From assembly GCA_017883965.1 (NCBI GenBank), contig JAFNKG010000005.1:194-64193 (forward strand): 64,000 nucleotides of DNA. The letters are read 5' to 3'. Source of the DNA: Candidatus Methanophagales archaeon (GTDB lineage: Archaea > Halobacteriota > Syntropharchaeia > Alkanophagales > Methanospirareceae). Of the stretch, positions 13,215 through 43,994 are shown piece by piece. Positions within the stretch are counted from its first letter, which is position 1; every line of letters begins with the position of its first letter. The position numbers and the translations under genes were made by a program. The notes below the pieces were generated by a model. The model was not told the DNA's origin and did no database searches. It was given only the letters and a program-made list of their open reading frames with translations.

Positions 13215-13275
13215 ATAGATAAAAGGGGGAGTTTTAAAGACAAGTGGCTACTTATATAGATCATAGCAAAATGAA

Positions 13276-17126: not shown

Positions 17127-17186
17127 TAAAAATGACAGTTTTTTATATTATATTTATAAACAACAGAAATAGGAGATAAATAAAAA

Positions 17187-17432
17187 ATGATATGGCAGCT
17201 TGACCTCATACTGCTGTTTTTAATTGTGGTTATCGCGATAGCTTCAATAACTGTGAGAGACCTTTTGAGTGCAATCATGTTATTGGGTGCATATAGTTTT
17301 CTGATGGCAATGGTCTGGGTAGAGATGCATTCGGTGGATGTGGGCTTTACAGAGGCTGCCGTCGGCGCCGGTGCAACCACCGCTTTCTTAATCGCTGCTT
17401 TATCCAGGACAGTGAGGTGGGAGAAGAAATGA
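17187..17432 (+). CDS. Small MrpB-N-terminal-like (DUF4040/MbhD-like) membrane subunit
   Basis: 81 aa with 3 transmembrane helices. Its position in the operon corresponds to MbhD/MbhE. Confidence 0.45.
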   Translation: MIWQLDLILLFLIVVIAIASITVRDLLSAIMLLGAYSFLMAMVWVEMHSVDVGFTEAAVGAGATTAFLIAALSRTVRWEKK

Positions 17433-17959: not shown

Positions 17960-18021
17960 ACAATGCGAATAGGTAATGAAGGTATGTCGGTCACATTATT
18001 GTTGAGGAGGCGAGGTAAGCT

Positions 18022-18516
18022 TTGAACCCGGAAAATAGTGAGATAGGAAAAGGCAGGGCGGGGGGTGGAGATGTCATAGTAGAGACAGTATCGAGACTGA
18101 TGGTACCTTTTATCCAGTTGTTTGCATTGTATGTGATAATACATGGAGCAGGCGGACCCGGGGGAGGATTTCAAGGAGGAGTTATATTCGCCGCTTCTTT
18201 TGTCTTACTCGTCATCGCTTTTGGGATTGTTGATGCAGGCGACAGATTCCCGGAGGCTGCAAATATCGCTTTCATCAGTCTTGGAGTGTATATCTTTGCT
18301 GGAGTGGGACTCCTATGCATAATCCTGAGTTTAGGAGCTGCGCAGTACCTCAACTATGGTTTCATTCCATTAACAACCCATTTCGAGGAGAATAGGGCTT
18401 TGGGAATAGACCTCGTAGAGGTAGGAATAGGAATAACAGTAATGGCAGTAATCACTTCTATATTTTTTAACCTCGCGTGGAAAAGAGAAAGTGAAGAAGG
18501 AGGTAGGGAGGAATAG
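18022..18516 (+). CDS. mrpB: Mrp/Mnh antiporter subunit B-like protein (MbhF-like)
   Basis: HGAGGPGGGFQGGVIFAASF matches the MnhB signature HGhltPGGGFqGG. Confidence 0.75.
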   Translation: MNPENSEIGKGRAGGGDVIVETVSRLMVPFIQLFALYVIIHGAGGPGGGFQGGVIFAASFVLLVIAFGIVDAGDRFPEAANIAFISLGVYIFAGVGLLCIILSLGAAQYLNYGFIPLTTHFEENRALGIDLVEVGIGITVMAVITSIFFNLAWKRESEEGGREE

Positions 18517-18518
18517 AA

Positions 18519-18899
18519 ATGATGGAATGGCTAATCGAGGAAATATTTGCAAAATATAATTACTGGGTTTCCATAATTCTCATGCTCATCGGTTTCTATG
18601 CGATGATAGCAAAGGATAATCTGATAAAGAAGGTCATCGGATTGACCATATTCCAAACCGCTATATTCCTGTTCTTCATATCGCTGGGTGATATGGTAGG
18701 AGGAACCGAGCCAATCTATATAAAAGGATACGAAGGCTTATACGTGAATCCGTTACCTCACGTGCTTATCCTGACGGCAATAGTGGTGGCAGTATCCACA
18801 ACCGCAGTTGCCCTCGCTCTGGTAATAAGGATGTATGAGGAATACGGGACGATAGAGGAAGAGGAGATAATAGAGAAGGAGAGAGAATTGGGGCTGTAG
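18519..18899 (+). CDS. mrpC: Mrp/Mnh antiporter subunit C-like protein (NuoK/MbhG-like)
   Basis: 126 aa with 3 transmembrane helices. VIGLTIFQTAIFLFFISLG is NuoK/MnhC-like. Confidence 0.7.
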   Translation: MMEWLIEEIFAKYNYWVSIILMLIGFYAMIAKDNLIKKVIGLTIFQTAIFLFFISLGDMVGGTEPIYIKGYEGLYVNPLPHVLILTAIVVAVSTTAVALALVIRMYEEYGTIEEEEIIEKERELGL

Positions 18900-18973: not shown

Positions 18974-18987
18974 GTGTCACCGGTGTC
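18974..18987 (+). promoter_or_regulatory. GTGTCAC-cg-GTGTC motif upstream of the first large antiporter subunit
   Basis: The sequence is gtgtcaccggtgtc. It shares its heptamer with the sites at 31968, 35487 and 43008. Confidence 0.3.
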
Positions 18988-19106
18988 TCGTCAGAGATAA
19001 ATGGGGAGTTTTATATCTAATGGTTTTTTATTCTATAAATGTAGAACTTTTTAGTCCTCTCGGGTGAGAATAGAATGAATAATAAAAAGGAGGAAAGTAA
19101 GGTCTG

Positions 19107-25837: not shown

Positions 25838-26126
25838 TATAAAAAGAGAGGAAAAGGAGATGGGAAGTAAATTCAGTAGTGCGGTGAAATGTTTTATTAA
25901 ATGTCCAGTGTGCACAATTAGACTTATGCGGAGTTTTGGTTCGTATGATCAGGGGACAGAGGAATTAATAAAGAAAAGTTGTCCTGAAGTAGACGTGGAG
26001 AGCTTAGGTTATTACTTCGGTATTTTCCAGGCTATTATCTTCGTTGTTCTTTGTGTGATGGCGTATCTATTTTTTTACGCGCTTAAAGTCGTTCTCTTTT
26101 ACCGGGAAATGCTTTTCCCTCCATGA
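25838..26126 (+). repeat. Left copy of an approximately 290 bp direct repeat flanking the HEAT/IS66 block
   Basis: ggagatgggaagtaaattca...aaatgttttattaaatgtccagtg recurs at 28481..28770. Confidence 0.6.
25860..26126 (+). CDS. Small tail-anchored Cys-rich protein (CF.K.PV...R.M / CPEV family)
   Basis: 88 aa. Contains KCFIKCPVCTIRLM...SCPEVDVESLG followed by one TM helix. It belongs to the same family as 43097..43378 and 43432..43704 and the C-terminal tail of 43987..45810. Confidence 0.5.
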   Translation: MGSKFSSAVKCFIKCPVCTIRLMRSFGSYDQGTEELIKKSCPEVDVESLGYYFGIFQAIIFVVLCVMAYLFFYALKVVLFYREMLFPP

Positions 26127-28480: not shown

Positions 28481-28770
28481 TTATATAAAAGGGGGAAAAA
28501 GGATGGGAAGTAAATTCATCAGTGCGCTGAAATGTTTTATTAAATGTCCAGTGGACTCAGCGAGACTCATGCTGACTTCGGGTTACGAATCGAGACCTGT
28601 GGAATCAATAAAGGCGCGTTGTCCCGAAGTAGAAGTGGAGAGTTTTGGTTTTTACGTAGGTCTTTTCATGGGTATTATCTTCGTTGTTCTCTGCGTGATG
28701 GCGTATCTATTTTTTACGCGCTTAAAGTCGTTATCCTGTACCGGGAAATGCTTTTCCCTCCATGAATTCA
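28481..28770 (+). repeat. Right copy of the approximately 290 bp direct repeat
   Basis: Near-identical to 25838..26126 with indels that cause a frameshift. Confidence 0.6.
28503..28765 (+). pseudogene. Frameshifted second copy of the small CPEV tail-anchored protein
   Basis: MGSKFISALKCFIKCPV... is nearly identical at DNA level to 25860..26126. The C-terminus continues in another frame (ORF 28544..28765 ends ...YREMLFPP, as the intact copy does). Confidence 0.5.
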
Positions 28771-28816
28771 AAAAATCGAAATGCTTTTTATTTGTGTATC
28801 TTTTATATTAAAAAAT

Positions 28817-30208
28817 ATGGATAGTGGAATACTGCCTGAATTGAGGGAGGCGCTATCAGCGGGGGCGGGGTATTCGCTGCTGATAAAGGGGGAGCCGGGA
28901 ACAGGGAAGACAATGCTTGCATTTGAGATGCTCGACGAGTTCGGGGGCGACAATGCTGTTTATCTTTCAGCGAGGATTTCACCCCCCTCTCTTTACAAAC
29001 AATTTCCATGGCTGAAAAAACGTATCGGTTTTAGCGTGATAGATGCAACTAAGTTGTATCTCTCATCAAAAGCATTTCCAAGGGCGCGCACTTTCTCTGA
29101 CATTCTTTACCTGAAAATGGTACAGGAAAAAAAACCCGCTACGCTCGTAATTGATAGCTGGGAGGCGATAGCATCGGAAGTAAAAAAGGAAGAGATAGAA
29201 ATGCTGGAAGCTGCGATAACTGACCTGATAAGGAATTATGCAACGCAATACGAAATGAATTTGATACTCATATCAGAAAGAAGTGGGACAACCCCGCTCG
29301 ATTATATTGTTGATGGAATAGTAGAGCTAAGCCGCATAACCATTGACTACCGGAGGGCGAGGGAAATGGTGCTAAAGAAATTAAGAGGCGTCAGAATAGA
29401 CCAGCACAAATATGGTTTTACCTTAGATGGTGGCAGATTTCGTTTCTTCGCTCCTTTCGAGCGGAGGAAAATAGAGAAGCCGAGAAGGGTAGAGGTTGTG
29501 CCAAATACTCCCACACATATATCTACGGGGTGTGTGGAGATAAATAGGATTTTGGGTGGTGGATTAAGTAAGGGAAGCACCCATATTATAGACTATGGAG
29601 ATGATTTATCTCTATTAGGATACCAATCCATCGTTTCTCACATGATTATAAACAGTATACAGCAAGGGAATTATTGTGTGAAGATTCCGAGTAGTGGATG
29701 GGATGAGAGGAGATTAAGGAGGGGGATATTGCCCTTCGTGAAGGAAGAGGATTATATGAAGTATTTCACAATCTTTGAGATAAGAAGGGAGAAGAAAGAA
29801 GTAAGAGAGAACGTGAAGGTTTTGAAAGGCGAATCAATGGAGGAAGATTTTCCATTGTTCACTGATTTCATTTCCAATTTAGAACCTCCGGTCATGGTTA
29901 TTATCGGAACGGATTTGTTAGAGTATCAATATCGTTTGAAAACAGTGACCAACCTTGCGAGAATGTTGGAGTTATTCTCATATTGGATAATGGAGTTGAG
30001 AGAGGCAGGAAATGTAGGAGTATTTGGAATGCCCACCGGAGGCGCATTGGGCGAAGAGCTGGGTCACATGGTAACGAATCGCTGGAAGATGACTGTGCTT
30101 GATAAGGGTGTTATCCTCTATTGCAATCGCCCTGATACCAAATTACATTGCGTGGAGAATATTATCACCGAAGAAACTCTTAAGTTAAAGCTCACTCCTT
30201 TTGTGTGA
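28817..30208 (+). CDS. KaiC/RecA-superfamily two-domain ATPase; domain 1 has an intact P-loop and domain 2 a degenerate one
   Basis: Contains GYSLLIKGEPGTGKTMLAFEML (Walker A). The second domain has the GGGLSKGSTHIIDYGDDLS loop in place of a P-loop. The start was set at MDSGILPELREAL by alignment with the paralog at 41014. Confidence 0.65.
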   Translation: MDSGILPELREALSAGAGYSLLIKGEPGTGKTMLAFEMLDEFGGDNAVYLSARISPPSLYKQFPWLKKRIGFSVIDATKLYLSSKAFPRARTFSDILYLKMVQEKKPATLVIDSWEAIASEVKKEEIEMLEAAITDLIRNYATQYEMNLILISERSGTTPLDYIVDGIVELSRITIDYRRAREMVLKKLRGVRIDQHKYGFTLDGGRFRFFAPFERRKIEKPRRVEVVPNTPTHISTGCVEINRILGGGLSKGSTHIIDYGDDLSLLGYQSIVSHMIINSIQQGNYCVKIPSSGWDERRLRRGILPFVKEEDYMKYFTIFEIRREKKEVRENVKVLKGESMEEDFPLFTDFISNLEPPVMVIIGTDLLEYQYRLKTVTNLARMLELFSYWIMELREAGNVGVFGMPTGGALGEELGHMVTNRWKMTVLDKGVILYCNRPDTKLHCVENIITEETLKLKLTPFV

Positions 30209-30226: not shown

Positions 30227-30574
30227 TCACTTTTTACGAAAAATCTCCACGCCCTCTTCTAAAGCTTTTCTTATGAAGAAATTACCTTCGCTCTTCATCT
30301 TTTCTACCTCCTTCTCTGTATAAGGAAATACATCCACCCCTACCGGGAACCGAGAAGGTAAAAAGCGAGGTATCCTTTTCAAGAATGCCTCTCTCGACTC
30401 TCTCAATATCACAAGCAGGTCTATATCACTCCGAACAAAGGAGCCGAAGAGGAGCACACGCTCTACTTCAGGGTGTTTTCCCCCTATCTCTTTCAGATAT
30501 CTCCTGAGCGATTCTTCCACCAACTTCTTATCGAAATATCTTATCCTCACAGAATCTGACAATTTCCTCTGCAT
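30227..30574 (-). CDS. Minimal nucleotidyltransferase (MNT)
   Basis: Contains VLLFGSFVRSDIDLLVIL. Confidence 0.7.
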   Translation of the reverse strand: MQRKLSDSVRIRYFDKKLVEESLRRYLKEIGGKHPEVERVLLFGSFVRSDIDLLVILRESREAFLKRIPRFLPSRFPVGVDVFPYTEKEVEKMKSEGNFFIRKALEEGVEIFRKK

Positions 30575-30734
30575 ATCCTATTACCCTTTCTGCTCCTTCT
30601 CTTGTGTAAAAATCTAAAGGTGCACCAGAAGGATAGGAATTGGGATAATCTTCATCCTCAAGAGCATGCCGAGCATGCTCCAAATCCCTTTTTGCCTGCC
30701 TTAGCCAATCTTCATCTCTTCTCGCCATTTTCAC
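30528..30734 (-). CDS. Short HEPN-like protein (68 aa, possibly truncated) overlapping the MNT
   Basis: DWLRQAKRDLEHARHALE and YTREGAERVIGYAEEIV resemble the N- and C-terminal HEPN helices of 12816..13214. The central part is missing. Confidence 0.4.
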   Translation of the reverse strand: MKMARRDEDWLRQAKRDLEHARHALEDEDYPNSYPSGAPLDFYTREGAERVIGYAEEIVRFCEDKIFR

Positions 30735-30836: not shown

Positions 30837-31823
30837 TTACTGGCTTGCCCTCGATACTTCAGCGGATAACAACCTGTATTCCTCATACGCCCTTTTTAGA
30901 AACTTCGATAGCACTATTGATGCACAATAAAATATCACTAACGCAAAAAATCTTGCATCTCTGAAAAGGAAATCCATTGGCACAAAAGCTTCTTCCGCTA
31001 AGCCCGCTAAGCTATACCATCTCATTCCATAGTAAACAAGAACATAAATGTTTATAGTGGTTAGACCAATGGCAGTTCCATGATAGACCTTAACCAGTTC
31101 TAACCAGTCTTTCTGTTTCCTGGGCATAGAATATATATAAGCGAAAAAGAGCCAGCCCATGATGAAAAGAGCAATACCTGAGCACATACTTTCCACTATG
31201 GTTATATTGAAGTCAATGCTTATGACTGTTCGCCATAAAAACGCTAAACCTACTATCACTAATAATGTTCGTTCATCAGTTATCACCGTGCCTATTAGTT
31301 CTTTCATGCCCATTTCTCTCAGCTTTTTAACCCTTGGGTATAAATATGGTGATATGAGATGCAGAAGACCCTTCTCTTTGGATAGCGATATATAATCCTC
31401 GTGCATCTTTTTTACATACTTCACTGACCATAGAACCGCACAATAAAACACCACTAATGCGATATATCTTATATCTCTGAAAAGGAAATCCATTGGCGGA
31501 TAAGCTTCTACTTGCAGTAACTCGAACCATCTCATTCCATAGTAAATAACAACGTAAATATTTATAGAGACCATGCTAACGGCAATCCCTTGACAAATCA
31601 AATTCGACATTACCCAGCCCTCCAGTTTCTTGGACTTGTGATACATGTAAGCAAAGAGAACCCAGCCAAATATGAAAATAGCAATGCCTGAACACATACT
31701 TTCCCAAGGGGCTATCTTTCCATCAAGACTAATGACCGTTCGCCATAAAATCGCTACAAATATTATCGCTATTAATGTTCGCCCATCCATTATCACTTTG
31801 CCTACGGAATCTTTTATGCCCAT
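30837..31823 (-). CDS. Polytopic membrane protein built from two tandem homologous halves
   Basis: Residues 1-165 and 166-328 align: MGIKDSVGKVIMDGRTLIAIIFVAILWRTVISLD... versus MGMKELIGTVITDERTLLVIVGLAFLWRTVISID... Confidence 0.55.
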   Translation of the reverse strand: MGIKDSVGKVIMDGRTLIAIIFVAILWRTVISLDGKIAPWESMCSGIAIFIFGWVLFAYMYHKSKKLEGWVMSNLICQGIAVSMVSINIYVVIYYGMRWFELLQVEAYPPMDFLFRDIRYIALVVFYCAVLWSVKYVKKMHEDYISLSKEKGLLHLISPYLYPRVKKLREMGMKELIGTVITDERTLLVIVGLAFLWRTVISIDFNITIVESMCSGIALFIMGWLFFAYIYSMPRKQKDWLELVKVYHGTAIGLTTINIYVLVYYGMRWYSLAGLAEEAFVPMDFLFRDARFFALVIFYCASIVLSKFLKRAYEEYRLLSAEVSRASQ

Positions 31824-31967
31824 CTTTATCTGAAAACTCCTATCCTTCTGGCTATTATTTTAATAGGTAAGTGTGTATAAATATATTTCGGTTTTTAGGC
31901 ACCATGATTTAACCTTTCCTCTTTTTATCAACCCAAAATCATCTACCATATATGGCATAAGGCACTT

Positions 31968-31993
31968 GTGACATAAGTGACACAAAGTGACAC
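31968..31993 (+). promoter_or_regulatory. Three direct GTGACA(C) repeats at about 10 bp spacing upstream of frhB-hdrA
   Basis: The sequence is gtgacataagtgacacaaagtgacac. Confidence 0.35.
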
Positions 31994-32228
31994 GAAAAAA
32001 ACATTAAGTTTTATATAGTATGAATTCTAAATTATTAAATGTGGTGAAGTGATGGCAACAACTCTTGCTCCTCACGGGAATAGGGGTTGCATCAGCGGAA
32101 GGGAAAGCGGAAGCGAGAGCAGAGCAGCGGGTGGATGAATTACAGACAGTGCATGGATAGCATCAAAATAAAAATGAATAAAGGAATGGCAGAAGCAGAA
32201 TTGAAGAGCGGGATTCTCACTATGGACG

Positions 32229-33263
32229 GTGTTAAAAGTGTTAAAAGGGAGGGTCAAGAGATTTGAGGGGTTAAAGGAGGAGATAATTGACAGAAATCTA
32301 TGTTCATACTGTGGAGCTTGCGTTTCCTTCTGTGAACATCTCGAACTTGGACCTAACGCACCAATGTTAAAAGAAGAGTGCCCGCTCGATAAGGAGGGAG
32401 TGCTGAAGTGTAGCGAGAATGGGACTTGCTATGATATATGTCCGATGACGGAAACGGATATAGAAGGTTTAGAGGAGACGTTTTTGGATCCCGAAGGCAT
32501 GAGAGATGAGCATTTTGGCATCTACAAGAAGTCAATCGCCGGAAAAACATCAATAGAAGGGCAGGATGGAGGGGTAGTTACTTCTATGCTGGTCGCAGGC
32601 GTGGAAAAAGAGCTATTTGATTGCGTTATCGTGGCAGAAAGGGTGGAAGGCTACAATGCGGTTCCAAAGATAGCAGAGGATGTAGATACGATAAAAAAAG
32701 CAAAGGGGACAAAATATGTGCAATGCCCCATGGTATCGAAGATAGGGGAAGCGGTGAAAAGAGGGAAAAGAAGAATTGCGATTGTCGGGACAGCATGCGA
32801 GATAAGAGCAGTTCGGAAAATACAGTCTGTTTTGCTAAAAGAAGTCCCACAGATAGGGATTACCACCGTTGGACTTTTTTGTTTCGAAAGTTTTTACTGC
32901 GATAAGTTCGTAAACGAGACGAAGGAGTTATTAGGAATTGACCTTTCGTCTGCCTCTAAAATTCAGATAGCAAAGGGTGAATGTGAGGTTACGGTGAAGG
33001 GGAGGCATTATAAAACAAAAATAACCAATCTGGAAGAGATAGTGAGGGACAGCTGTCGCTATTGTGATGATTTTACTGCGAGGCTTGCGGATATTTCTGT
33101 CGGGTCGGTAGGTAGTGCAGAGGGGTATTGCACCGTAATCGTCAGGTCTGAGAGGGGGGAGCAGCTTTTGGATTTGATTGAATTCGCCAGAGGCGAGGTC
33201 AATAAAGAGGAAATCAGTAAGATAGTGCGGTACAAAAAGGTGAAGATTGAGGATAGAATATGA
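32229..33263 (+). CDS. F420-hydrogenase/dehydrogenase beta-subunit family protein (FrhB/FdhB/FpoF-like) with N-terminal Fe-S motifs
   Basis: CSYCGACVSFC is a 4Fe-4S motif. IEGQDGGVVTSMLVAG matches FrhB_FdhB_N, and IAIVGTACEIRAVRK matches FrhB_FdhB_C. The stop codon overlaps the hdrA start. Confidence 0.75.
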   Translation: MLKVLKGRVKRFEGLKEEIIDRNLCSYCGACVSFCEHLELGPNAPMLKEECPLDKEGVLKCSENGTCYDICPMTETDIEGLEETFLDPEGMRDEHFGIYKKSIAGKTSIEGQDGGVVTSMLVAGVEKELFDCVIVAERVEGYNAVPKIAEDVDTIKKAKGTKYVQCPMVSKIGEAVKRGKRRIAIVGTACEIRAVRKIQSVLLKEVPQIGITTVGLFCFESFYCDKFVNETKELLGIDLSSASKIQIAKGECEVTVKGRHYKTKITNLEEIVRDSCRYCDDFTARLADISVGSVGSAEGYCTVIVRSERGEQLLDLIEFARGEVNKEEISKIVRYKKVKIEDRI

Positions 33264-35233
33264 AAATAGGCGTTTATATATGTCACTGTGGGACGAACAT
33301 AGCAGCAACGGTGGATGTGAACGAGGTAACGAAGTTTGCAAAGAATCTATCAGGCGTTGCTATATCGAGAGATTACGTTTATATGTGCTCAGATCCAGGT
33401 CAGGAGCTGATAAAAAAGGACATTTTAAATGCGAAGCTGGACAGAGTTGTTGTTGCTTCCTGCTCTCCGAGGATGCACGAAGTTACTTTCAGAGGGGCGT
33501 GTGAGGAAGTGGGATTGAACGGCTATTGCATGGAAATGGCAAATATAAGGGAACAGTGCAGTTGGGTTCATTCTGACAAAGAAAAGGCGACAGAGAAAGC
33601 AAAGGAACTGGTGGCGAGTGCAGTTGCAAAAGCATCTTTATTACAGCCTTTGGAGCCAATGCGAGTAGGTGTAACGCCTTCTGCACTGATAATAGGAGGA
33701 GGAATAGCAGGAATTCAATGTGCATTAGATATTGCAGATGCAGGTTTTCAGGTGTATTTAGTAGAAAGGGAGCCCTCAGTAGGCGGGCACATGGCACAGC
33801 TTGATAAGACTTTTCCAACTTTGGATTGTTCTGCTTGCATTCTCACACCGAAGATGGCGGATGTGGCTCGCCATAAGAACATCGAGCTGGTTACTTATGC
33901 GGATGTGGAGAACGTAGAGGGCTACATAGGGAATCTCAAGGTGGTGGTGAGGAAGAAAGTGAGGTATGTGGATGAAGAAAAATGCACGGGATGCGGTTAT
34001 TGTGCGAAAGTGTGTCCCGTGACCATCTCTAATGAGTTTGATATGGGATTAGGAACGAGAAAAGCAGCTTATATCCCTTTTCCACAGGCTGTTCCTTTAG
34101 CTTACACGCTTGAGCGTGCAAAATGTATGGGTTGTGCTCTGTGCGAAGTAGTATGTGAGGTGGGAGCGATAAATTTTGAAGATGATGATGAGGAAATCGA
34201 GTTAGAAGTAGGAGCGATAGTAGTGGCGACGGGTTATGATTTATTTGACCCTTCTTTAGAGCCGAATTACGGCTATGAGTATGATAGGGTAATAACGGGC
34301 TTGGAGTTTGAGCGGCTTTGTAACGCTTCGGGTCCGACAAAGGGGGGTATAGAAATAAATGGTAAAGAGCCGAAAGATGTGGTTTTCATAAGCTGCGTGG
34401 GCTCGAGGGAGAAAGATGTGGAGGGAGGGAAAGGGAATGAATGTTGCTCTCGTGTATGTTGCATGTATATAGCGAAACAAGCGCATTTGGTGAAGGAGCA
34501 GATACCGGATGCGAATGTAACTGTTTTTTATACGGATGTTCAAGCATTCGGTAAAGGATTTGAAGAATTCTACTGGCGAGTGAAAGAAGAGGGAGTTAAT
34601 TACATAAGAAGGGAGTTAAAAGACGAGATAAAAGTAGAGAAGAAAGAGAATGGGAGGTTGAAAGTAAAAACAGTAAGAGAAGGTCGCCCGATAGAGAAGG
34701 AAGCAGACCTCGTAGTGCTCGCAACCGGCATTGTTCCTCGAAGGGATGTCTCTGACCTTGTAAGGAAATTGAAGATAACACAAAGTGGCGATAAATTCTT
34801 CCTTGAGGCACATCCAAAACTCCGCCCGATGGATACGCTTACTGATGGTATTTTCATCACTGGCTGTTGTCAATCGCCAAAAGACATTCCGGATAGCGTT
34901 GCACAGGCATCGGCTGCGGCATCGAGGGTTTGTAGCATATTATCTCAGGACTATATAGAAGTAGAGCCGATAATCGCAGAAGTAAAAGAAGAACTTTGCA
35001 TCGGCTGTGGTTCTTGTAAGGAAGTTTGTCCCTTCGGAGCGATAGAGTTAAAAGAAGAAGAAAGGCAGTTTGAGGAAATCGTGTTAAGAACGAGGAAATC
35101 GTATGTGACCCCAGCGCTCTGCAAAGGTTGTGGCGCTTGCATTCCCGAATGCCCCGTCAGTGCGATGACACAAAAGCACTTCACATCTGCACAGATAGAG
35201 GCGATGCTGAGGGGAGTTGGTGTTACAGCGTGA
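33260..35233 (+). CDS. hdrA: Heterodisulfide reductase subunit A (HdrA), FAD/Fe-S protein
   Basis: 657 aa. The FAD-binding site GGGIAGIQCALDIADAGFQVYLVEREPSVGGHMAQLD is present, with several ferredoxin CxxCxxCxxxCP motifs (CTGCGYCAKVCP, CIGCGSCKEVCP, CKGCGACIPECP). Confidence 0.85.
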   Translation: MKIGVYICHCGTNIAATVDVNEVTKFAKNLSGVAISRDYVYMCSDPGQELIKKDILNAKLDRVVVASCSPRMHEVTFRGACEEVGLNGYCMEMANIREQCSWVHSDKEKATEKAKELVASAVAKASLLQPLEPMRVGVTPSALIIGGGIAGIQCALDIADAGFQVYLVEREPSVGGHMAQLDKTFPTLDCSACILTPKMADVARHKNIELVTYADVENVEGYIGNLKVVVRKKVRYVDEEKCTGCGYCAKVCPVTISNEFDMGLGTRKAAYIPFPQAVPLAYTLERAKCMGCALCEVVCEVGAINFEDDDEEIELEVGAIVVATGYDLFDPSLEPNYGYEYDRVITGLEFERLCNASGPTKGGIEINGKEPKDVVFISCVGSREKDVEGGKGNECCSRVCCMYIAKQAHLVKEQIPDANVTVFYTDVQAFGKGFEEFYWRVKEEGVNYIRRELKDEIKVEKKENGRLKVKTVREGRPIEKEADLVVLATGIVPRRDVSDLVRKLKITQSGDKFFLEAHPKLRPMDTLTDGIFITGCCQSPKDIPDSVAQASAAASRVCSILSQDYIEVEPIIAEVKEELCIGCGSCKEVCPFGAIELKEEERQFEEIVLRTRKSYVTPALCKGCGACIPECPVSAMTQKHFTSAQIEAMLRGVGVTA

Positions 35234-35486
35234 AAGAGGAGAAGGAAGCCCTGATTTATGTTGTCATATACACTCAACTACTCGTTTTTTGTAAACGTTT
35301 TTTATCCTTGCTAAAATTGATTCCAATCCCAAGGAAGCTGGTTGAATACGTGGAAAGCGAGGGCAAACATTACGGAATGAAAAGGTCTTTAATTGTGCGA
35401 CACAGCACAGCATGTTTTTACATCTTCGACATTTCAAGCTGAAGTTTAACGCCGAAAAGCAAGATATCTTTCTTGCAGTTTTCAGC

Positions 35487-35502
35487 GTGTCACCAGTGAC
35501 AC
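35487..35502 (+). promoter_or_regulatory. Palindrome GTGTCAC-ca-GTGACAC upstream of antiporter set B
   Basis: The sequence is gtgtcaccagtgacac, a perfect inverted heptamer, about 55 nt upstream of 35555. Confidence 0.35.
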
Positions 35503-35554
35503 ATAGAGGGAAAAAGAATAACTTTATATATTTTGTTTCCTATAAACAGTTCTG

Positions 35555-37063
35555 ATGTTGAGTGTAGTTGAACATTTTCCTGTGCTTATCGTTGTAATAT
35601 CGCTGTTTTCTGCATTCACCATCTTGATTGTCGGCTCTGTGAAGAAGAAATCGTGCTGTTTCATTTCCATTGGAACCATTCTCGTTCAATTCGTCATGGC
35701 TGTTTTTATCCTGCGTCATGTCCTGACTGAAGGAACCATTCATTACTGGCTCGGGGGATGGAGCCCGCCATGGGGCATAGAATATGTCGTAGATGCCTTG
35801 AATGCATACGTATTGGTCATACTTCTGGTTTTAGCTTTGATATGTGCGATATATTCAAAGAGGAGCATAGAGCACGAATTGCCGCATAAAATTGTCCCTT
35901 TTTATACCATTTATCAACTCCTTATCACTGGTCTGTGCGGTATAACCGTGACCGGCGATATTTTTAATATGTATGTGTTTGTCGAGATAACGTCCTTATC
36001 TGCGTATGCGTTAGTAGCATCGAGGGGTAAAATAGCGTTAAAGGCGAGTTTTACTTACCTCGTATTGGGCTCCATCGGTGCTTGCTTCTTCTTGTTGGGG
36101 GTAGGTTTCCTGTATTCAGTAACGGGTTCGCTGAACATGCACGACCTCTCGCTCTTATTACCACCTTTATACGGGAATAGAGTAGTTCAGGCGGCTTTTG
36201 TTTTTTTCATAGTTGGACTAAGCATAAAAATGGCGCTATTCCCGCTTCATACGTGGTTACCAGATGCACATGCCTTTGCACCTTCGGAGATAAGCGCAAT
36301 GCTTTCCGGTATAATCATCGAGGTTTGCACCTATGCATATATAAGGGTTGCGTTCTCTGTATTCACGCTGGAGTTCATCACGCTTTACGTGCCTATATCC
36401 GGTATACTTTGCTGGATATCTGCAATAGCCATGATCTTTGGTTCTATTCTTGCGATAGCGCAGTTTAATTTAAAGAGGATGCTTGCTTATTCGAGTGTAG
36501 CGCATATGGGCTATATTATGCTCGGTGTGGGGCTTTCCACTTCCAACCCTTTAGGACTAACTCCTCCTTTGATGCACATACTGAACCACGCATTGATGAA
36601 AGGATGCTTGTTCCTGGTTGCCGGTGCTTTTATTTACAAGGCGGATTTGTGGAATATAACGGATTTCCGGGGTTTGGGAAGAAAAATGCCTTATACATGC
36701 ATGGCCTTCATTTTAGCTGCTCTCTCAATGTTAGGAATGCCACCAAGCGTGGGATTCGTCACGAAATGGTATCTAATAATTGCCGCTTTGGAGGCAAAAC
36801 AATTTATATTTGTGGCGGTGATATTCTTTAGCACGCTTCTTATGGTATTTTATTTTTGGCGTGTGATAGAATATATGTATATAAGGGTGGGAGACGAGGA
36901 AGGAAAAGAAAAGGAAATAGAGGAGATACCGAGGAGTATGCTCATCCCGGTGTTAGTACTCGCATTTCTCTGTTTCATCATGGGAATTATCTGGCTCACT
37001 GAGATACCTTTACCCATATTGGACGCAGTTAATTCAATGTATGGATTGGGGGTGGTGCCATAA
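35555..37063 (+). CDS. NuoN/MrpD-family antiporter-like subunit (set B, D1')
   Basis: 502 aa. The N-terminal 70 aa are nearly identical to those of 19107..20639. Contains LAYSSVAHMG. Confidence 0.8.
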   Translation: MLSVVEHFPVLIVVISLFSAFTILIVGSVKKKSCCFISIGTILVQFVMAVFILRHVLTEGTIHYWLGGWSPPWGIEYVVDALNAYVLVILLVLALICAIYSKRSIEHELPHKIVPFYTIYQLLITGLCGITVTGDIFNMYVFVEITSLSAYALVASRGKIALKASFTYLVLGSIGACFFLLGVGFLYSVTGSLNMHDLSLLLPPLYGNRVVQAAFVFFIVGLSIKMALFPLHTWLPDAHAFAPSEISAMLSGIIIEVCTYAYIRVAFSVFTLEFITLYVPISGILCWISAIAMIFGSILAIAQFNLKRMLAYSSVAHMGYIMLGVGLSTSNPLGLTPPLMHILNHALMKGCLFLVAGAFIYKADLWNITDFRGLGRKMPYTCMAFILAALSMLGMPPSVGFVTKWYLIIAALEAKQFIFVAVIFFSTLLMVFYFWRVIEYMYIRVGDEEGKEKEIEEIPRSMLIPVLVLAFLCFIMGIIWLTEIPLPILDAVNSMYGLGVVP

Positions 37064-39153
37064 TGATAGCAGAAGTTGCCTGGTTATGCTTCCTTTTTCC
37101 TTTTGCCGGCGCGCTTTTATCTCCTGTTCTAGCCAGAATTCATCCTAAGCTCAGAGATTATGGGGCGGTGTTTTTCTCTTTCCTCGCAGCTCTATCCAGC
37201 GTGATGTTCATACCCTATTTATTTCATCCCTCGAAGTTGCCAATCGAGAGTGCTTTTGTATGGCTCACCACACCCATAGAATTGAGAGTTGGTGTTTTGA
37301 TTGATCCTTTGAGTATAGTGATGGCAAATGTAGTTGCAGTTATAAGCTTTATAATAATGGTTTATTCCCTGGGGTATATGAAGGGAGACCCTTCCTTAAC
37401 AAGGTGGTGGATGTGGATGAACCTTTTCATTGGAAGTATGCTCCTTCTGGTTCTTTCCAATAACTTGCTATTTCTCTTCGTCGGATGGAAAATGGTAGGC
37501 TTGTGCAGCTATGGATTAATAGGTTTTTACTATAGGGACGAGAAGAAATACTGGATAGGTGGTCCTTCCCCCACTAAATACTGCACACCTTCCCACGCAG
37601 GCTTAAAAGCTTTAGTTGTAACGTCCGCTGGGGATGTTCTCATGTTAGGTGGGATTCTTATAATGTATTCCTATTCGGGAACCTTAAACATCCTGGAACT
37701 TTATGAGACTTCATCAATATGGATACCGGAAATGGCAAAGTCATCGGGAATGATCTTACTGGCGAGTATTCTCCTTCTTGCAGGACCCATCGGTAAGTCA
37801 GCACAGTTTCCACTTCACGAGTGGCTTCCGGAAGCTATGGCAGGTCCTGGTCCAGTTTCAGCACTGATCCATGCAGCAACAATGGTTAAAAGCGGGGTTT
37901 ATCTGGTTGCCAGATTCATACCAATTTTCTTCTACGGCTATTGGGTAGCTGGATGCAGCGAAGCTTCTTATTTCTTCATTTTAACCGCTTGGGTAGGTGC
38001 AATCACAGCCTTTTTGGCTGCTACTCAAGGTATGGTCTCCTTGGAACTGAAAAAAGCGCTTGCATTTTCTACCGTTAGTCAGATAGGCTACATGATGCTT
38101 GCATTAGGAGTATCCGGATTAACTGCGCCCAGTCTAATGGGAGGCTTTACATCAGGAATGTTTCACCTGGTAAATCATGCTCTGTTTAAGGCTTGTCTCT
38201 TCCTTTGCGCTGGTTCGGTCATTCACACCGCTCACTCTATCTATATGAACGATATGGGCTCCATCAGAAAGTACATGCCGTTTACCTGGATTTTCATGTT
38301 TATTGCGGCTCTATCTCTGATGGGTGTTCCGCCACTGCCTGGATTTTGGAGTAAAGACGCCATTCTTGTATCATGTCTGGAAGCCCATAATTACCCATTA
38401 TTCTTACTCGCCTTAATTACCGTAGTCGTAACTTCATTCTATACGCTACGCTTTATAGGAATGGTCTTTCATGGAAGTGAGAGTAAAAACGTAGAAAAAT
38501 TAAAGCAAAAAGGTACGCATCTCGGTGAAGCCCACCGTACAATGGTGGGTGCATGCGGTGTTTTAGCTATCACGATTATTGTACTTGGCATATTTGGTCT
38601 CCCCTTAGAGCATTTATTAGGAGAAGGATTCGGATATACTATGGAAAAACTTCATCTGCCAGTTGAACATGCTACCGAGCATTCGATGCCTCATTTATTA
38701 GTTCCTCTTCTATCAGTAATTTCAGTGGTTATAGGTATTGTGCCGGCATATTTACTTTACATATCGAGAAAAATAGATCCAGAGGGCATGTTGGAGAAGT
38801 ATCTAACCCTGAAGGTGCTTCATAAGTTCTTCTGGAATAGGTGGTACATAGATCGTTTCTATTACATGTTTTTTGTAGGTGGAATGACCAAGCTTTTTAC
38901 TTCTGTACCCAAGTATATTGAAAATCCACTGGATAAATTGTTTCATAAGATAATCCCCTCTATTCCCGGAAGACTCTATGACGGGGGGCGGCTCATTCTG
39001 GCAAGTAAGTATGGGCGAGAGGAGGTAGAAGGGGCACCAGAAGAAGAACCAGTGGTAGGAATAAGCATAGGGCTCGCATTGCTGCTGGTGCTTTTCTGCA
39101 TCGCTTTATATTTGATAGCTATGTTTATACGTGGGTGGCTTATAAGTCCCTAA
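37063..39153 (+). CDS. NuoL/MrpA-family antiporter-like subunit with a long C-terminal extension
   Basis: 696 aa. Contains WLPEAMAGPGPVSALIHAATMVKSGVYLVARF and HLVNHALFKACLF (NuoL-like). The C-terminal tail ...NPLDKLFHKIIP... ends in a TM segment. It overlaps the upstream gene by 1 nt. Confidence 0.8.
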   Translation: MIAEVAWLCFLFPFAGALLSPVLARIHPKLRDYGAVFFSFLAALSSVMFIPYLFHPSKLPIESAFVWLTTPIELRVGVLIDPLSIVMANVVAVISFIIMVYSLGYMKGDPSLTRWWMWMNLFIGSMLLLVLSNNLLFLFVGWKMVGLCSYGLIGFYYRDEKKYWIGGPSPTKYCTPSHAGLKALVVTSAGDVLMLGGILIMYSYSGTLNILELYETSSIWIPEMAKSSGMILLASILLLAGPIGKSAQFPLHEWLPEAMAGPGPVSALIHAATMVKSGVYLVARFIPIFFYGYWVAGCSEASYFFILTAWVGAITAFLAATQGMVSLELKKALAFSTVSQIGYMMLALGVSGLTAPSLMGGFTSGMFHLVNHALFKACLFLCAGSVIHTAHSIYMNDMGSIRKYMPFTWIFMFIAALSLMGVPPLPGFWSKDAILVSCLEAHNYPLFLLALITVVVTSFYTLRFIGMVFHGSESKNVEKLKQKGTHLGEAHRTMVGACGVLAITIIVLGIFGLPLEHLLGEGFGYTMEKLHLPVEHATEHSMPHLLVPLLSVISVVIGIVPAYLLYISRKIDPEGMLEKYLTLKVLHKFFWNRWYIDRFYYMFFVGGMTKLFTSVPKYIENPLDKLFHKIIPSIPGRLYDGGRLILASKYGREEVEGAPEEEPVVGISIGLALLLVLFCIALYLIAMFIRGWLISP

Positions 39154-39241
39154 ACTTCTTTATATTATTCTTCAGCAAATGGTCACGAAAGAAATGATTA
39201 GGAACGTGGTGGATGCAACAAGAGATGGGGTGGTGATGTAA

Positions 39242-40753
39242 ATGATACCTTATATCCTTTTTCAAATAACAGCAGTACCAATTATAGCCTCCGTATTCAT
39301 ATTTTTAACCAGACCAAGATTAGGTGAGAAAGCAGGCTGGATAGTGGGTATTACCCTCTTATACACTACTGCGCTTCTTTGTATGGTTGGCATCAGAGTT
39401 TATCAGGGCACAATAATTTATGAGGAATATCCATTAGCCCCGGCGGTGAATTTTAATCTTTTAGCCGACGGTTTGAGTATACCTGTTGCATTGATAATGA
39501 ATCTGTGCTGTGTAGTCCTGGCATTTTACTCAATACACTATGTAGGACACAGAATAGAGGTAATATATGGAGAAGTGGATAAAGAGACATGGCTTATGTA
39601 TTACACGAGGTTTTTCTTTTTATTTCCCTTCTTTTCCACGGGTTTCATGGGTATTGCCTTTTCTACAAACCTTATAGCGATGTATTTCTTCATGGAACTA
39701 TTGACTATTATTCCCCTTTATTTCATAATGGCTCAATTTGGTTATTCCGATTTTATAGAGCGTTATAAAGTTGCCCTAATGTGTCTTTTCTGGGGAATTG
39801 CTGGGGCGACCCTCTTCCTGATTGGTATCCTTTTAGCATATACCCAGATAGATAGCTTTGAAATCTCGGAGTTGCGCACTCTTTCGGGAAATCCAGTAAT
39901 TACCTGGATTATCTTATGCATGCTTCTTGGTTTATTTTCTAAGCTGGCAATATTTCCACTTCATGTTTGGATGCCCTGGGTTCACGCAGAGCATCCCACA
40001 TGCATAGCTGGATTGCTTGCGGTTTATGCGAATATAGCAGCTTATGTGATGGTTAGGGTTCTCATCTTGCCACTTTATAATGATTTCAAAGTTTTTGGCA
40101 TACCTATTATGGTGTTGGCTCTGGTAACCATGGTATATGGCTCTCTTCTTGCTATGGCTCAAAATGACGTGAAACGATTCGCTGCTTGCTCAACTATAAG
40201 CCAGATATCATATTCTGTCCTTGGACTGAGCGCACTCACAATCTGGAGTATTGAAGGGGGGCTCTTTTTCTTTTTGAGTCACATCATGGGTAAAGCAATT
40301 CTCTTCTCAACCGCTGGTATATTAGTCTATGTGACAGGGATCAGGGATATGAGAGAGATGGGTGGACTCGCATCCAGGATGCCAATAACTGCTACGCTCT
40401 GGATAATGGGCGCTATGATGCTCTCAGGCCTTCCGCCTTTTAGCACCTTCGCAGCAGAATGGATAATGTTCACAGGCATCTTCATGTTTGGAGCACATGG
40501 TCCTTCTATTGCACTGATAGTTGCAATTCTGGGTGTTTCTGCAGTTGGATTAACGATTGCTTACACATTCTGGTCCGCGAAGAGAATATTTTTTGGTCCA
40601 TTGAAACCTAATCTGTCAAATGATGAAATCAGGGACCCACCATTAACGATGTGTGTTCCACTTCTACTTTTAGCTGTTGTATCAATCATCCTTGGCCTGT
40701 ATCCTAAACCCATAATGGATCTTTTTCATTTTGTGATAGGAGGAGTAATATGA
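39242..40753 (+). CDS. NuoN/MrpD-family antiporter-like subunit (set B, N1')
   Basis: 503 aa and a paralog of 24296..25795. VWMPWVHAEHPTCIAGLLA is identical between the two. Confidence 0.8.
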   Translation: MIPYILFQITAVPIIASVFIFLTRPRLGEKAGWIVGITLLYTTALLCMVGIRVYQGTIIYEEYPLAPAVNFNLLADGLSIPVALIMNLCCVVLAFYSIHYVGHRIEVIYGEVDKETWLMYYTRFFFLFPFFSTGFMGIAFSTNLIAMYFFMELLTIIPLYFIMAQFGYSDFIERYKVALMCLFWGIAGATLFLIGILLAYTQIDSFEISELRTLSGNPVITWIILCMLLGLFSKLAIFPLHVWMPWVHAEHPTCIAGLLAVYANIAAYVMVRVLILPLYNDFKVFGIPIMVLALVTMVYGSLLAMAQNDVKRFAACSTISQISYSVLGLSALTIWSIEGGLFFFLSHIMGKAILFSTAGILVYVTGIRDMREMGGLASRMPITATLWIMGAMMLSGLPPFSTFAAEWIMFTGIFMFGAHGPSIALIVAILGVSAVGLTIAYTFWSAKRIFFGPLKPNLSNDEIRDPPLTMCVPLLLLAVVSIILGLYPKPIMDLFHFVIGGVI

Positions 40754-41013
40754 GTGCTTGAAAAACTAAGACTTGACCGACAATTACGCTTGACACAGAC
40801 TGGTTCTACCGGATAACAGGATGTATTAAAACGCTTTTTCTCCAATCAAATTCATCGCTTTGTTATCCATTTAATTGCCCGCTGTTCTCGTCACTCGAAA
40901 CTTCCCCTTCTTCCATTGACAACGACCTTTCTTTGAAAAGAAAGCGTGACCAAAGAAATATGTTTTTAATAACAAAAAACCTTTTTATATATATAAAAAC
41001 AAACTTTTTGATT

Positions 41014-42402
41014 ATGATGGAAGCGAAAATGCCCCCGGAGTTAGCTGAGGCATTCTCCTCACCGAGAGGCTATTCACTGCTGATAAAGGGAGCGCCGGGG
41101 ACAGGGAAGACGATACTCGCACTTGAGCTAATCGGCGAGTTAGGCGAAGTTAATGCCGTTTACCTTTCAGCCCGGGTCTCCACTCACGCCCTTTACGACC
41201 AGCTCCCCTGGCTGGACGAATGTGTCAGCCCGTTGAACCTGATAGATGCCACAAAGTTCTACGTATCTTCGGATATAGTTCCAGGAGTGCAATCTTTCCC
41301 TGATATTCTTTACACAAGGTTAGGGAAAATAAAAAAACCCGCTACCGTTGTAATTGATAGCTGGGAAGCGATAACATCTCAGATGGAGAGGGAAAAGACA
41401 GAAGCGCTGGAAGCGGCGATTACCGAATTAGCAAGACATGCCGAAATGAAATTGATACTCGTGTCAGAGAATCTTGGTATATCATCGCTTGATTACATGG
41501 TGGATGGGATAGTAACGCTAAAGCGTTTAACGCTGAATTACAGAAGGGCGAGGGAATTAGAGATAGAGAAATTAAGGGGTATCCGAATAGACCAGCCAAA
41601 ATATGCATTCTCCTTAGAAGGAGGCAGATTTCATTATTTCAGACCTTTCGAGCGGAGGAAAATAGAGAAGCCGAGAAGAGTAGAGATTGTGCAAAATAGC
41701 GAAGCATACTTGTCTACCGGGGTCCGGGACTTAGATAAAATTCTGAGCGGGGGATTCAGAAAGGGAAGTTTTAATATTATAGAAGCCGGAGATGATATGT
41801 CTGTTTTGGGTTACCAATCCATTATCGCTCACATGATTATAAACAGCATACAGCAAGGGAATAACTGTGTATGTATTCCATGTTGCGGCTGGAATGAGCG
41901 GAGATTGAGAAGGGGGATATTGCCTTTTGTAAATGAAGAAGACTATAATAAGTTTTTCACTGTATTCGAGATAGGTTCAGAGGAGAAGGAAGATGAGGGA
42001 GAGAATGTGAGAATATTGAAAGGAGAGTCGATGAAGACGGACTTTCCCAAATTCCGGGATTTCATTTCTGATTTGGAGCCGCAAGTAATGGTAATTATCG
42101 GAGCGGATACGCTGGAGTATCCATATCAGTTGAAAGAGAAAGGTAAAGTAGGTGAAATGGTGGGGATGTTATCCCGGTTGATGATAGATGTGAGGGATGC
42201 AGATAATGTAGGTGTATTTGGAGTGACTCCGGGGCTTGTGCTGAGCAGTGAGCTGATTCACCTCTCGTCAGTGCACCTGAAGTTGACCGTGCTCGATAGA
42301 AGTGTTATCCTTTACTGCAATCGCCCTGATACCAAAGTACATTGTCTGGAGAATGTTGTTACTGATGATAGTCTTAGAATAGAACTCACTGCTATTGTAT
42401 AG
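41014..42402 (+). CDS. KaiC/RecA-superfamily two-domain ATPase, paralog of 28817..30208
   Basis: Contains GYSLLIKGAPGTGKTILALELI. It shares the stretch FERRKIEKPRRVE with the first copy, and the DNA there is identical over about 35 nt. A TATA-like ttttatatatataaaa lies just upstream. The start was trimmed to the internal ATG. Confidence 0.65.
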   Translation: MMEAKMPPELAEAFSSPRGYSLLIKGAPGTGKTILALELIGELGEVNAVYLSARVSTHALYDQLPWLDECVSPLNLIDATKFYVSSDIVPGVQSFPDILYTRLGKIKKPATVVIDSWEAITSQMEREKTEALEAAITELARHAEMKLILVSENLGISSLDYMVDGIVTLKRLTLNYRRARELEIEKLRGIRIDQPKYAFSLEGGRFHYFRPFERRKIEKPRRVEIVQNSEAYLSTGVRDLDKILSGGFRKGSFNIIEAGDDMSVLGYQSIIAHMIINSIQQGNNCVCIPCCGWNERRLRRGILPFVNEEDYNKFFTVFEIGSEEKEDEGENVRILKGESMKTDFPKFRDFISDLEPQVMVIIGADTLEYPYQLKEKGKVGEMVGMLSRLMIDVRDADNVGVFGVTPGLVLSSELIHLSSVHLKLTVLDRSVILYCNRPDTKVHCLENVVTDDSLRIELTAIV

Positions 42403-43096: not shown

Positions 43097-43378
43097 GTGG
43101 TGGGAATGGGAATAAAAAAAATAGTTGGCACGTGGCGATGCTTTGGCAAGGACCCGGTGCTCGCAACAAGGATAATGATAGATGTGGCGGGTGCGAAGTT
43201 ACTGGGGACATTTAATCCTGTATATAAGAAATACGAGCAGGATTTGGAAGTGACAAAGAGAAGATGCCACGAAGAAGCGGTCCAAAACCTGGCGATTGGG
43301 ACAGTGGCATTGATGTCGCTTGTCTTCGGGACTCTCTACCTGTTTATTTACCTGACGTATAGGGTGCTGTGGATTTAA
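43097..43378 (+). CDS. Small tail-anchored protein (CF.K.PV..TRIM family), copy 1
   Basis: 93 aa. Contains WRCFGKDPVLATRIMIDVAGAKLLGTFNPVYKKYEQDLEV followed by one TM helix. The gene and its leader are tandemly duplicated. Confidence 0.5.
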   Translation: MVGMGIKKIVGTWRCFGKDPVLATRIMIDVAGAKLLGTFNPVYKKYEQDLEVTKRRCHEEAVQNLAIGTVALMSLVFGTLYLFIYLTYRVLWI

Positions 43379-43431: not shown

Positions 43432-43704
43432 ATGGAAATAAAAAAAATTGTCGGCACGTGGCGATGCTTTGGCAAGGACCCGGTGCTCGCAACAAGGATA
43501 ATGATAGATGTGGCAAGTGCGAAGTTACTGGGGACATTTAATCCTGTATATAAGAAATACGAGCAGGATTTGGAAGTGTGTAAGAGAAATTGCCCTGAGG
43601 TATCATGTCATAGTCTGGCTATCGGCACGGGGGTCCTGCTGGCAGTTCTTTTCGGCGTTTTTTGCGCAGTAGCGTATGCGATTCAGGTATTGGTCATTCC
43701 ATAA
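43432..43704 (+). CDS. Small tail-anchored protein (same family), copy 2, with a CPEV motif
   Basis: 90 aa. The N-terminal 45 aa are identical to those of copy 1, then NCPEVSCHSLAIG followed by a TM helix. Confidence 0.5.
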   Translation: MEIKKIVGTWRCFGKDPVLATRIMIDVASAKLLGTFNPVYKKYEQDLEVCKRNCPEVSCHSLAIGTGVLLAVLFGVFCAVAYAIQVLVIP

Positions 43705-43766: not shown

Positions 43767-43994
43767 ATGTTAAAAATGAGGGATGGAATGGAACTTGGAA
43801 AGGAGTTGAAAGGACTTATTATAGCTGGTATATGTGGTATAGGCGTAGCATTAGCTACATCTGCCTTATTTGTGGAGCATCATGAACATTTTTTTGGTTT
43901 CTACGCCCTATACGGGGCGATAGGAGTGGGATTCTTTCTATTAACCACGAAGATATTGTCCGCAATACAAAAGGAGGGGAGTCAAGATGATTGA
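43767..43994 (+). CDS. Small membrane protein with 2 TM helices
   Basis: 75 aa. It overlaps the downstream antiporter gene by 8 bp, in the same relative position as 22197..22433. Confidence 0.4.
   Translation: MLKMRDGMELGKELKGLIIAGICGIGVALATSALFVEHHEHFFGFYALYGAIGVGFFLLTTKILSAIQKEGSQDD

Follow-up and report, generated by a model that had tools for sequence, protein, structure and literature searches.

The 64,000-nt window analysed here, from a contig of a Candidatus Methanophagales archaeon (JAFNKG010000005.1), carries on its forward strand an frhB-like gene coding for an F420-oxidoreductase subunit and, overlapping it by 4 nt, hdrA coding for subunit A of a heterodisulfide reductase (Hdr). 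The explanation favoured here, to which a probability of roughly 0.6 is given, is that the two genes form a self-contained bicistronic operon of ANME-1 (anaerobic methanotrophic archaea of group 1). They would encode the F420 arm and the flavin bifurcation core of a soluble Hdr whose partners are encoded elsewhere, and their site beside antiporter genes would result from a recent 3.6-kb insertion. The pairing of an F420 subunit with HdrA is already published for ANME-1, and the locus is a rearranged, minimal member of a known cluster type. Anaerobic methane oxidation poses the central question of how the thiols of coenzyme M and coenzyme B (CoM-SH and CoB-SH) are re-oxidized in ANME-1, which lack HdrDE, and F420-linked HdrA complexes are the leading candidates for this step. 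The locus is a clean minimal example of such a system: it has only the F420 subunit and an HdrA with its full set of ligands, closely coupled and able to move together as a cassette. Such a minimal locus marks the FrhB-like protein and HdrA as the conserved core. The proximity of antiporter genes is not to be taken as a new respiratory complex.

An overlapping gene pair for an F420 oxidoreductase subunit and HdrA

The frhB-like gene (32229 to 33263, plus strand) has a GTG start and codes for 344 residues, organized as an N-terminal ferredoxin domain for two [4Fe-4S] clusters followed by a core binding FAD and a [4Fe-4S] cluster. The true start is likely the second in-frame GTG at 32238, giving 341 residues as in the orthologs. 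The protein matches the Pfam families FrhB_FdhB_N (51.3 bits, cutoff 22) and FrhB_FdhB_C (123.9 bits, cutoff 23.3). In an alignment of 38 homologs, eight N-terminal cysteines (C25, C28, C31, C35, C51, C61, C67 and C71) are conserved at 90% or more, and the core cysteines C190, C218, C276 and C279 as well as a GQDGG motif (G111-G115) are invariant; the core cysteines and the motif align with those of FrhB and of the protein 8RIU_B. The latter, the zeta subunit of a carbon monoxide dehydrogenase (CODH), is the best sequence match among Protein Data Bank (PDB) entries (E=1e-45 over residues 15-321, identity ~30%). An AlphaFold2 (AF2) model (pLDDT 89.7, pTM 0.91) superposes on 8RIU_B with a TM-score of 0.86, on FwdI (8RJA_E) with 0.82, on the F420H2-oxidase half of Fsr with 0.81 and on FrhB with 0.69, while it reaches only ~0.60 with ElpB/FdhB of the solved Hdr complexes. 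By its Pfam matches, its cofactor ligands and its modelled fold, the protein belongs to the FrhB/FdhB/FpoF family, with a predicted activity on F420.

Two narrower assignments were rejected. A true FrhB of an F420-reducing hydrogenase is contradicted by the score under TIGR03289 (155 bits for a cutoff of 331.5) and by the lack of FrhA/G in the window. An identity as FpoF is contradicted by the score under the NCBIfam model NF040616 (146.5 bits for a cutoff of 475) and by the lack of Fpo core genes in the window.

The second gene, hdrA (33260 to 35233, plus strand), codes for a complete type-I HdrA of 657 residues. Residues 2-652 align with residues 5-648 of 5ODC_A (784 bits), and a score of 752 bits is obtained with the HdrA of 8RVU. 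The four-domain architecture is present over the full length, i.e. the N-terminal domain, the thioredoxin reductase (TrxR)-like FAD domain, the inserted ferredoxin domain and the ferredoxin domain at the C-terminus. Alignment with M. wolfeii HdrA indicates that all the cysteine ligands of the six [4Fe-4S] clusters are kept, including C386/399/403/404 and Cys197, which completes the N-terminal cluster of the partner subunit. Since the N-terminal domain and Cys197 are retained, a canonical HdrA homodimer is possible. The best NCBIfam model is HdrA2 (NF040770, 845.6 bits for a cutoff of 1100), ahead of the HdrA model (584 bits). The HdrA2 model is matched only at positions 1-639 of 777; positions 640-777 being unmatched, the MvhD fusion of Methanosarcina HdrA2 is absent here.

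The two open reading frames (ORFs) share the tetranucleotide ATGA (33260 to 33263, plus strand), the TGA stop of frhB lying within the ATG of hdrA (33260-33262). The junction reads GAT AGA ATA TGA AAA, and a GAGGA Shine-Dalgarno-like motif stands 6 nt 5' of the hdrA ATG. This overlap, already pointed out in a preliminary description of the window, is kept in 12/12 loci of relatives in which it was scored (L001-L005 and L012-L017, where L numbers designate the loci fetched for comparison; FrhB identity 75-86%, junction on the contig, FrhB protein identical in L012-L015). The locus of the closest relative (L008, FrhB 89%) was left out of the count, its contig ending inside frhB. Because the overlap is kept in all scored relatives, it is a real feature and not a chance one. 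As a trait of gene layout, the 4-nt overlap shows the pair to be a predicted co-transcribed unit, and translational coupling of the two genes would be compatible with it.

The operon also appears to be equipped with signals of its own. A TATA-box-like TTTTATATA (32009 to 32017, plus strand) is a putative archaeal promoter of frhB-hdrA, and two T6 runs (35285-35290 and 35298-35303, plus strand), located 52-70 nt past the hdrA stop, resemble archaeal terminators. If this TATA-like box is used, the frhB leader is purine-rich and ~190 nt long (32040-32228); an A/T-rich stretch at ~32165-32185 could serve as an alternative promoter. The 200-nt leader has no unusual folding (z = +1.3) and no Rfam match, and over the whole window neither a known RNA (Rfam at gathering threshold) nor a tRNA (tRNA scan) was found. 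Both genes are under purifying selection in comparison with four orthologs, with dN/dS values, averaged over the whole divergence, of 0.21-0.31 for frhB and 0.10-0.15 for hdrA.

Relatives of the pair and its insertion into an antiporter supercluster

Relatives of the FrhB-like protein at 72-89% identity are encoded in ANME-1/Methanophagales genomes and metagenome-assembled genomes (MAGs), where the conserved core is the arrangement hdrA(u)-frhB-hdrA(d). HdrA of the window is orthologous to hdrA(d) (76-87% identity), its identity to hdrA(u) being only ~62%. In the closest relative, L008, hdrA(u) still lies directly upstream of frhB. The three-gene core stands without further Hdr-related genes in the fetched flanks of L016, and is accompanied in L012-L015 by FlpD next door and an 857-aa GltD/HdrA-type protein. 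In L017, hdrA(d) is immediately followed by an FlpD-HdrC-HdrB fusion, and hdrC-hdrB are found 8 kb upstream; L018 comprises MetF, several HdrA-like genes and two FlpD genes. More distant FrhB homologs (52-56% identity) are encoded in clusters with HdrA, FlpD and CCG proteins. The two-gene form of the window recurs in L005, in another variable region, among PD-(D/E)XK, DUF2779 and SMC-like genes. The FrhB clade is therefore robustly associated with Hdr at every identity level sampled.

Clusters of this kind have been described. HdrA gene clusters with only an FdhB homolog, and without an FdhA homolog, were reported in ANME-1 only (Chadwick et al. 2022, PLoS Biol, PMC9012536, Fig 8A and its section on bifurcation complexes); in the same paper the FrhB3-5 clades are labelled '(HdrABC)' in Fig 16. 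In a 2025 survey, type I HdrA clustered with fdhB is listed as an F420-dependent variant. The window pair resembles these ANME-1 clusters in its orthologous FrhB and HdrA and in the same 4-nt overlap. It differs from them in lacking the hdrA(u), FlpD, GltD-HdrA and HdrBC-like genes usually nearby, and in lying inside an Mrp-type supercluster.

Two further observations concern these relatives. The hdrA(u) of close relatives (L012, L016 and L017) has lost Cys296, a ligand of the inserted ferredoxin domain (replaced by Y or S), while in HdrA(d) nothing is missing, in keeping with an asymmetric HdrA(u)/HdrA(d) heterodimer such as Chadwick et al. suggested where other HdrA pairs stand in tandem. 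The L017 fusion (13014-14705 of that locus, 563 aa) joins FlpD (MvhD-like), ferredoxin (HdrC-like) and CCG (HdrB-like) domains, and a single polypeptide of this type could supply all the partners missing from the window.

Pfam scans of all substantial ORFs of the 64-kb window detected no CCG-domain protein (HdrB/D), HdrC, FlpD/MvhD or second HdrA. Searches of the window by tblastn with ANME-1 FlpD and both HdrA paralogs returned nothing beyond the HdrA at 33260-35233, and no remnants of hdrA(u), FlpD or GltD-HdrA. No molybdopterin-family protein is encoded in the window, so an FdhA/ElpA-type scaffold is missing as well. The earlier statement that neither HdrBC nor MvhD is nearby is thus borne out. 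A conventional cluster with HdrBC and MvhD directly downstream, which that description had named as the contrary case, does not exist within the 29 kb downstream, where nothing relevant lies. An identical FrhB protein is recorded from a contig of 64,269 bp, hence the window is practically the entire contig; for the HdrA protein, an exact look-up found no record.

The pair owes its present site to an insertion. In comparison with other Methanophagales, a segment of ~3.6 kb (31898 to 35466, plus strand) has been inserted, comprising the putative promoter, leader, frhB, hdrA, terminator-like runs and trailer. Upstream of frhB, where relatives have hdrA(u), stands a divergent gene for a 328-aa membrane protein; downstream of hdrA follows a trio of Proton_antipo_M genes (35555-40753; MrpD-like, NuoL-like and NuoM-like). 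Three loci found through homologs of the NuoL-like protein of the window (L020, L021, of near-identical gene layout, and L022) carry the same supercluster, including a KaiC-like gene and the divergent 328-aa gene, in which the 328-aa gene is followed by ~169 nt and then by the antiporter trio, without frhB-hdrA. At the nucleotide level, the alignment of L020 and L022 to the window stops at 31897 and resumes at ~35467, their own intergenic region there being the ~169 nt, which sets the breakpoints at ~31897/31898 and ~35466/35467. As these loci carry the supercluster without the pair, frhB-hdrA is a lineage-specific insertion, and because L008 still has hdrA(u) upstream of frhB, the rearrangement is recent. 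For the leader (31898-32228) and the trailer (35234-35466), blastn found no source in any fetched locus or elsewhere in the window. L020 and L013 come from the same sample with similar coverage (1088x and 1046x), the hdrA-frhB-hdrA-flpD genes of L013 being on a different contig; the two contigs presumably belong to one genome.

Proposed electron path and competing explanations

In the mechanism proposed for the operon, hydride would be exchanged between F420/F420H2 and the FAD of the FrhB-like subunit, and electrons would travel through the core [4Fe-4S] cluster of this subunit, then through its N-terminal 2x[4Fe-4S] ferredoxin domain, into HdrA. The bifurcating FAD of HdrA would join this mid-potential branch to ferredoxin via the inserted ferredoxin domain, and a high-potential branch would lead from HdrA to CoM-S-S-CoB or the thiols via HdrBC-type proteins. 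Mid-potential electrons would probably enter via an MvhD/FlpD-type [2Fe-2S] protein, HdrBC and MvhD being encoded outside the locus. In a methane oxidizer, the expected direction is confurcation, in which CoM-SH, CoB-SH and reduced ferredoxin would give two F420H2. In 8RIU, the F420-reductase module holds on to its partner, and is wired to it, through its N-terminal ferredoxin domain; F420 reduction was measured there (PMC11493965). F420H2-dependent bifurcating Hdr was proven biochemically for Elp-Hdr (PMC12350162) and HdrA2B2C2 (PMC5296606), and a confurcation model for ANME is published (PMC9012536, PMC12054007, PMC4683180). Partners acting in trans would fit two reports: according to a figure legend (S9 Fig, PMC9012536), ANME-1 have many more hdrA than hdrBC genes, and the Elp-Hdr of M. 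thermolithotrophicus uses a trans-encoded MvhD (PMC12350162). The F420-linked HdrA unit of the preliminary description, with its plausible bifurcating or confurcating role, is upheld by the Hdr association of the clade, by the F420-reductase ligands and fold of the FrhB-like protein and by the completeness of HdrA.

The pair can be set beside several characterized systems. The closest by sequence and fold are the zeta subunit of CODH (8RIU_B) and FwdI (8RJA_E) of Ca. Ethanoperedens (Lemaire et al. 2024, PMC11493965), which have the same domain architecture and act as plug-in modules wiring a ferredoxin-type enzyme to F420, the zeta subunit making CODH F420-reducing. The partner here is HdrA, not CODH or Fwd, and identity is ~30%. 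In the Elp-Hdr of Methanothermobacter marburgensis (ElpABC-HdrABC, 8RVU, Nature 2025, PMC12350162), a flavo-iron-sulfur subunit of the FrhB/FdhB family likewise feeds electrons from F420H2 to a canonical HdrA. However, ElpB is a member of a different FrhB subfamily (phmmer E=5e-13; TM 0.60 to the window protein), and Elp depends on two proteins not encoded in the window, the FdhA-like scaffold ElpA and the MvhD-like ElpC. With HdrA2B2C2 of Methanosarcina acetivorans (Yan, Wang and Ferry 2017, PMC5296606) the pair has in common the HdrA2 model as best match of its HdrA and, as a prediction, the same overall reaction, i.e. F420H2-dependent bifurcation to ferredoxin and heterodisulfide. HdrA2 differs in its fused MvhD domain, in using F420H2 without an FrhB subunit and in the adjacent hdrB2C2 of Methanosarcina. 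FpoF/FqoF, the F420H2 input of Fpo/Fqo, also combines the FrhB family with an N-terminal ferredoxin extension, and model positions 6-294 of 337 could be aligned. The score of 146 bits is nevertheless far from the cutoff of 475, the window clade is Hdr-associated and the window is devoid of Fqo core genes (B, C, D, H, I, J, K).

Several points weigh against the favoured explanation. As the 64-kb contig carries neither HdrBC nor MvhD, a full complex is only predicted in this organism. In the window, as in L005, the hdrA(u) paralog that usually stands upstream is missing. The FrhB-like protein belongs to another subfamily than FdhB/ElpB of the solved Hdr complexes (TM ~0.6), so its docking on HdrA is putative. 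Finally, dN/dS, being an average, could overlook recent relaxed selection after the insertion.

In another explanation, the pair was recently copied in part, or moved as a fragment, from a full hdrA(u)-frhB-hdrA(d)-flpD cluster and sits in a genomic hotspot; it would be redundant or decaying, and its position would have no significance. The hdrA(u) kept upstream of frhB in L008, the variable flanks of the insertion, the L005 copy among nuclease and SMC-like genes and a 2026 study reporting structural variation that affects hdrA and frhB in ANME-1 (PMC13385816) would all agree with it. It is judged unlikely, as both ORFs are intact with all cofactor ligands, dN/dS is 0.10-0.31 and the cassette brings its own promoter-like and terminator-like signals. 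A different proposal keeps the pair functional and dispenses with the partners: a minimal stand-alone (FrhB-HdrA)2 without HdrBC or MvhD, for example an F420H2:ferredoxin oxidoreductase or an enzyme with another high-potential acceptor, in which the ferredoxin domain of FrhB replaces MvhD. Energetics argue against it, for F420H2 (-340 mV) can reduce ferredoxin (-500 mV) only if an exergonic branch is coupled to the reaction (PMC9012536), and so do the solved complexes, which route mid-potential electrons to the bifurcating FAD via MvhD/ElpC (PMC12350162), and the FlpD and CCG genes that adjoin the pair in most relatives. Some weight remains on its side. In three independent loci (the window, L005 and L016) the fetched flanks of frhB and hdrA hold no FlpD or HdrBC, the N-terminal ferredoxin domain serves for docking and wiring in 8RIU and 8RJA (PMC11493965), and the HdrA homodimer is feasible; little probability is nonetheless granted to this proposal.

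The reading advanced as a possibility in the preliminary description, in which FrhB-HdrA is the electron-input module of the adjacent antiporter-like modules, here taken to form a new redox-driven ion pump, is not supported and is highly improbable. In its favour stand the position of the pair, 320 nt upstream of three Proton_antipo_M genes, and the three GTGACAC half-sites of the frhB promoter, which recall the palindrome before both antiporter gene sets. Against it, L020, L021 and L022 have the supercluster without the pair, and in the 21 other loci of FrhB homologs the frhB-hdr clusters have no antiporter-like neighbour, the sole antiporter-like gene being on the opposite strand ~7 kb away in L009. 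The pair has its own putative TATA box and terminator-like T-runs, and neither FrhB nor HdrA has a membrane-anchoring feature. No connecting subunit of the NuoB/C/D/H/I, NuoH/MbhM-like or MbhJ-N type was found in the window, where Pfam and NCBIfam detect only Mrp small subunits and Proton_antipo_M proteins. The trio, in turn, directly follows Mrp small-subunit genes in L022 and in L025, a Desulfobacterales contig of the same metagenome. Being contiguous with Mrp small subunits, it is part of a common Mrp-type cation/proton antiporter, for which no electron input is required. The same contiguity, together with the FpoF score far below cutoff, led us to reject the idea that the trio is a split Fqo membrane arm and FrhB its FqoF.

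A shared promoter motif and other features of the region

The frhB-hdrA promoter region has one feature in common with the antiporter genes. Three direct GTGACA(C) repeats (31968 to 31993, plus strand; 9-10 nt spacing) end 16 nt 5' of the TATA-like box and form a putative operator. Before the trio (start 35555), a palindrome GTGTCACCAGTGACAC (35487 to 35502, plus strand) is followed by a TATA-like CTTTATATA (35522-35530), ~29 nt 5' of the trio ATG, as the putative resident promoter and operator. In L020 (8397-8412) and L022 (~12935), GTGCCACC(G/A)GTGTCCC occupies the same position as this palindrome. A comparable GTGTCACCGGTGTCTC (18974-18989), then a TATA-like box, stands upstream of the paralogous antiporter gene set (PA19107). 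Both paralogous sets are preceded, ~20 nt upstream of their TATA boxes, by a GTGTCAC-N2-GTG(A/T)C(A/T)C element, and the 7-mer of the frhB promoter is the half-site of this palindrome. In the window, AGTGACAC occurs four times for 0.77 expected, three of these being at the frhB-hdrA and trio promoters.

No GTGACA cluster was found upstream of the hdr clusters of relatives, so the motif was not inherited from an hdr cluster promoter. The element may bind a regulator shared by the cassette and the antiporter gene sets, and its distribution suggests that the frhB-hdrA cassette was brought under the regulator that governs the Mrp-like genes; it is a small lead on regulation. Two forms of this idea differ strongly in probability. 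A coupling of the cassette and the Mrp-like supercluster by regulation only, without physical contact, is a tentative possibility. It is much more likely than the form in which the cassette was captured into the Mrp-like regulon and its soluble F420/ferredoxin module docks on antiporter-like subunits as an unknown Hdr-driven ion pump, to which hardly any probability is given.

The supercluster itself comprises an Mrp-type cluster (MrpF, G, E, MbhD, MbhE, MnhB and MnhC; 16019-18899) followed by four Proton_antipo_M genes up to 25795; with the trio and a further gene at 43987-45810, it totals eight Proton_antipo_M genes. Two genes for KaiC/GvpD-like ATPases (28781-30208 and 40933-42402) lie within it. 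Other Methanophagales share the whole arrangement, KaiC-like and 328-aa genes included, with a permuted order of modules. In Chadwick et al. 2022 (PMC9012536), the main text was not found to mention antiporter, Mrp, MrpD or Mnh. The 328-aa membrane-protein gene (30837-31823, minus strand) is an internal tandem duplication of a ~160-aa membrane module whose halves match by blastn; it has no Pfam or NCBIfam match and always lies divergently upstream of an antiporter gene set. Four genes for small cysteine-containing proteins of 88-102 aa without family match (25860-26126, 28503-28811, 43097-43378 and 43432-43704) recur after antiporter modules or just before KaiC-like genes. Their products appear to be paralogs, and those encoded at 25860 and 28503 have a hydrophobic tail.

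The NuoL-like protein of the trio and the following antiporter-like protein (37063-40753) are 79% and 72% identical to their counterparts in the bacterial Mrp operon of L025, which is flanked by bacterial-type histidine kinase and response regulator genes on a MAG labelled Desulfobacterales. This suggests a transfer of Mrp genes between ANME-1 and sulfate reducers. Toxin-antitoxin or defence-type genes are scattered over the window (3035-4584, 10428-12269, 12437-13214, 30227-30734, 60035-60849 and 61754-62164) and include AbiEi/AbiEii, an OLD-family AAA/TOPRIM nuclease and several nucleotidyltransferase (NTase)/HEPN-like pairs. One HEPN/NTase pair lies between the KaiC-like and 328-aa genes, at a place where L020 has a GH38 gene, a difference that identifies the region as variable.

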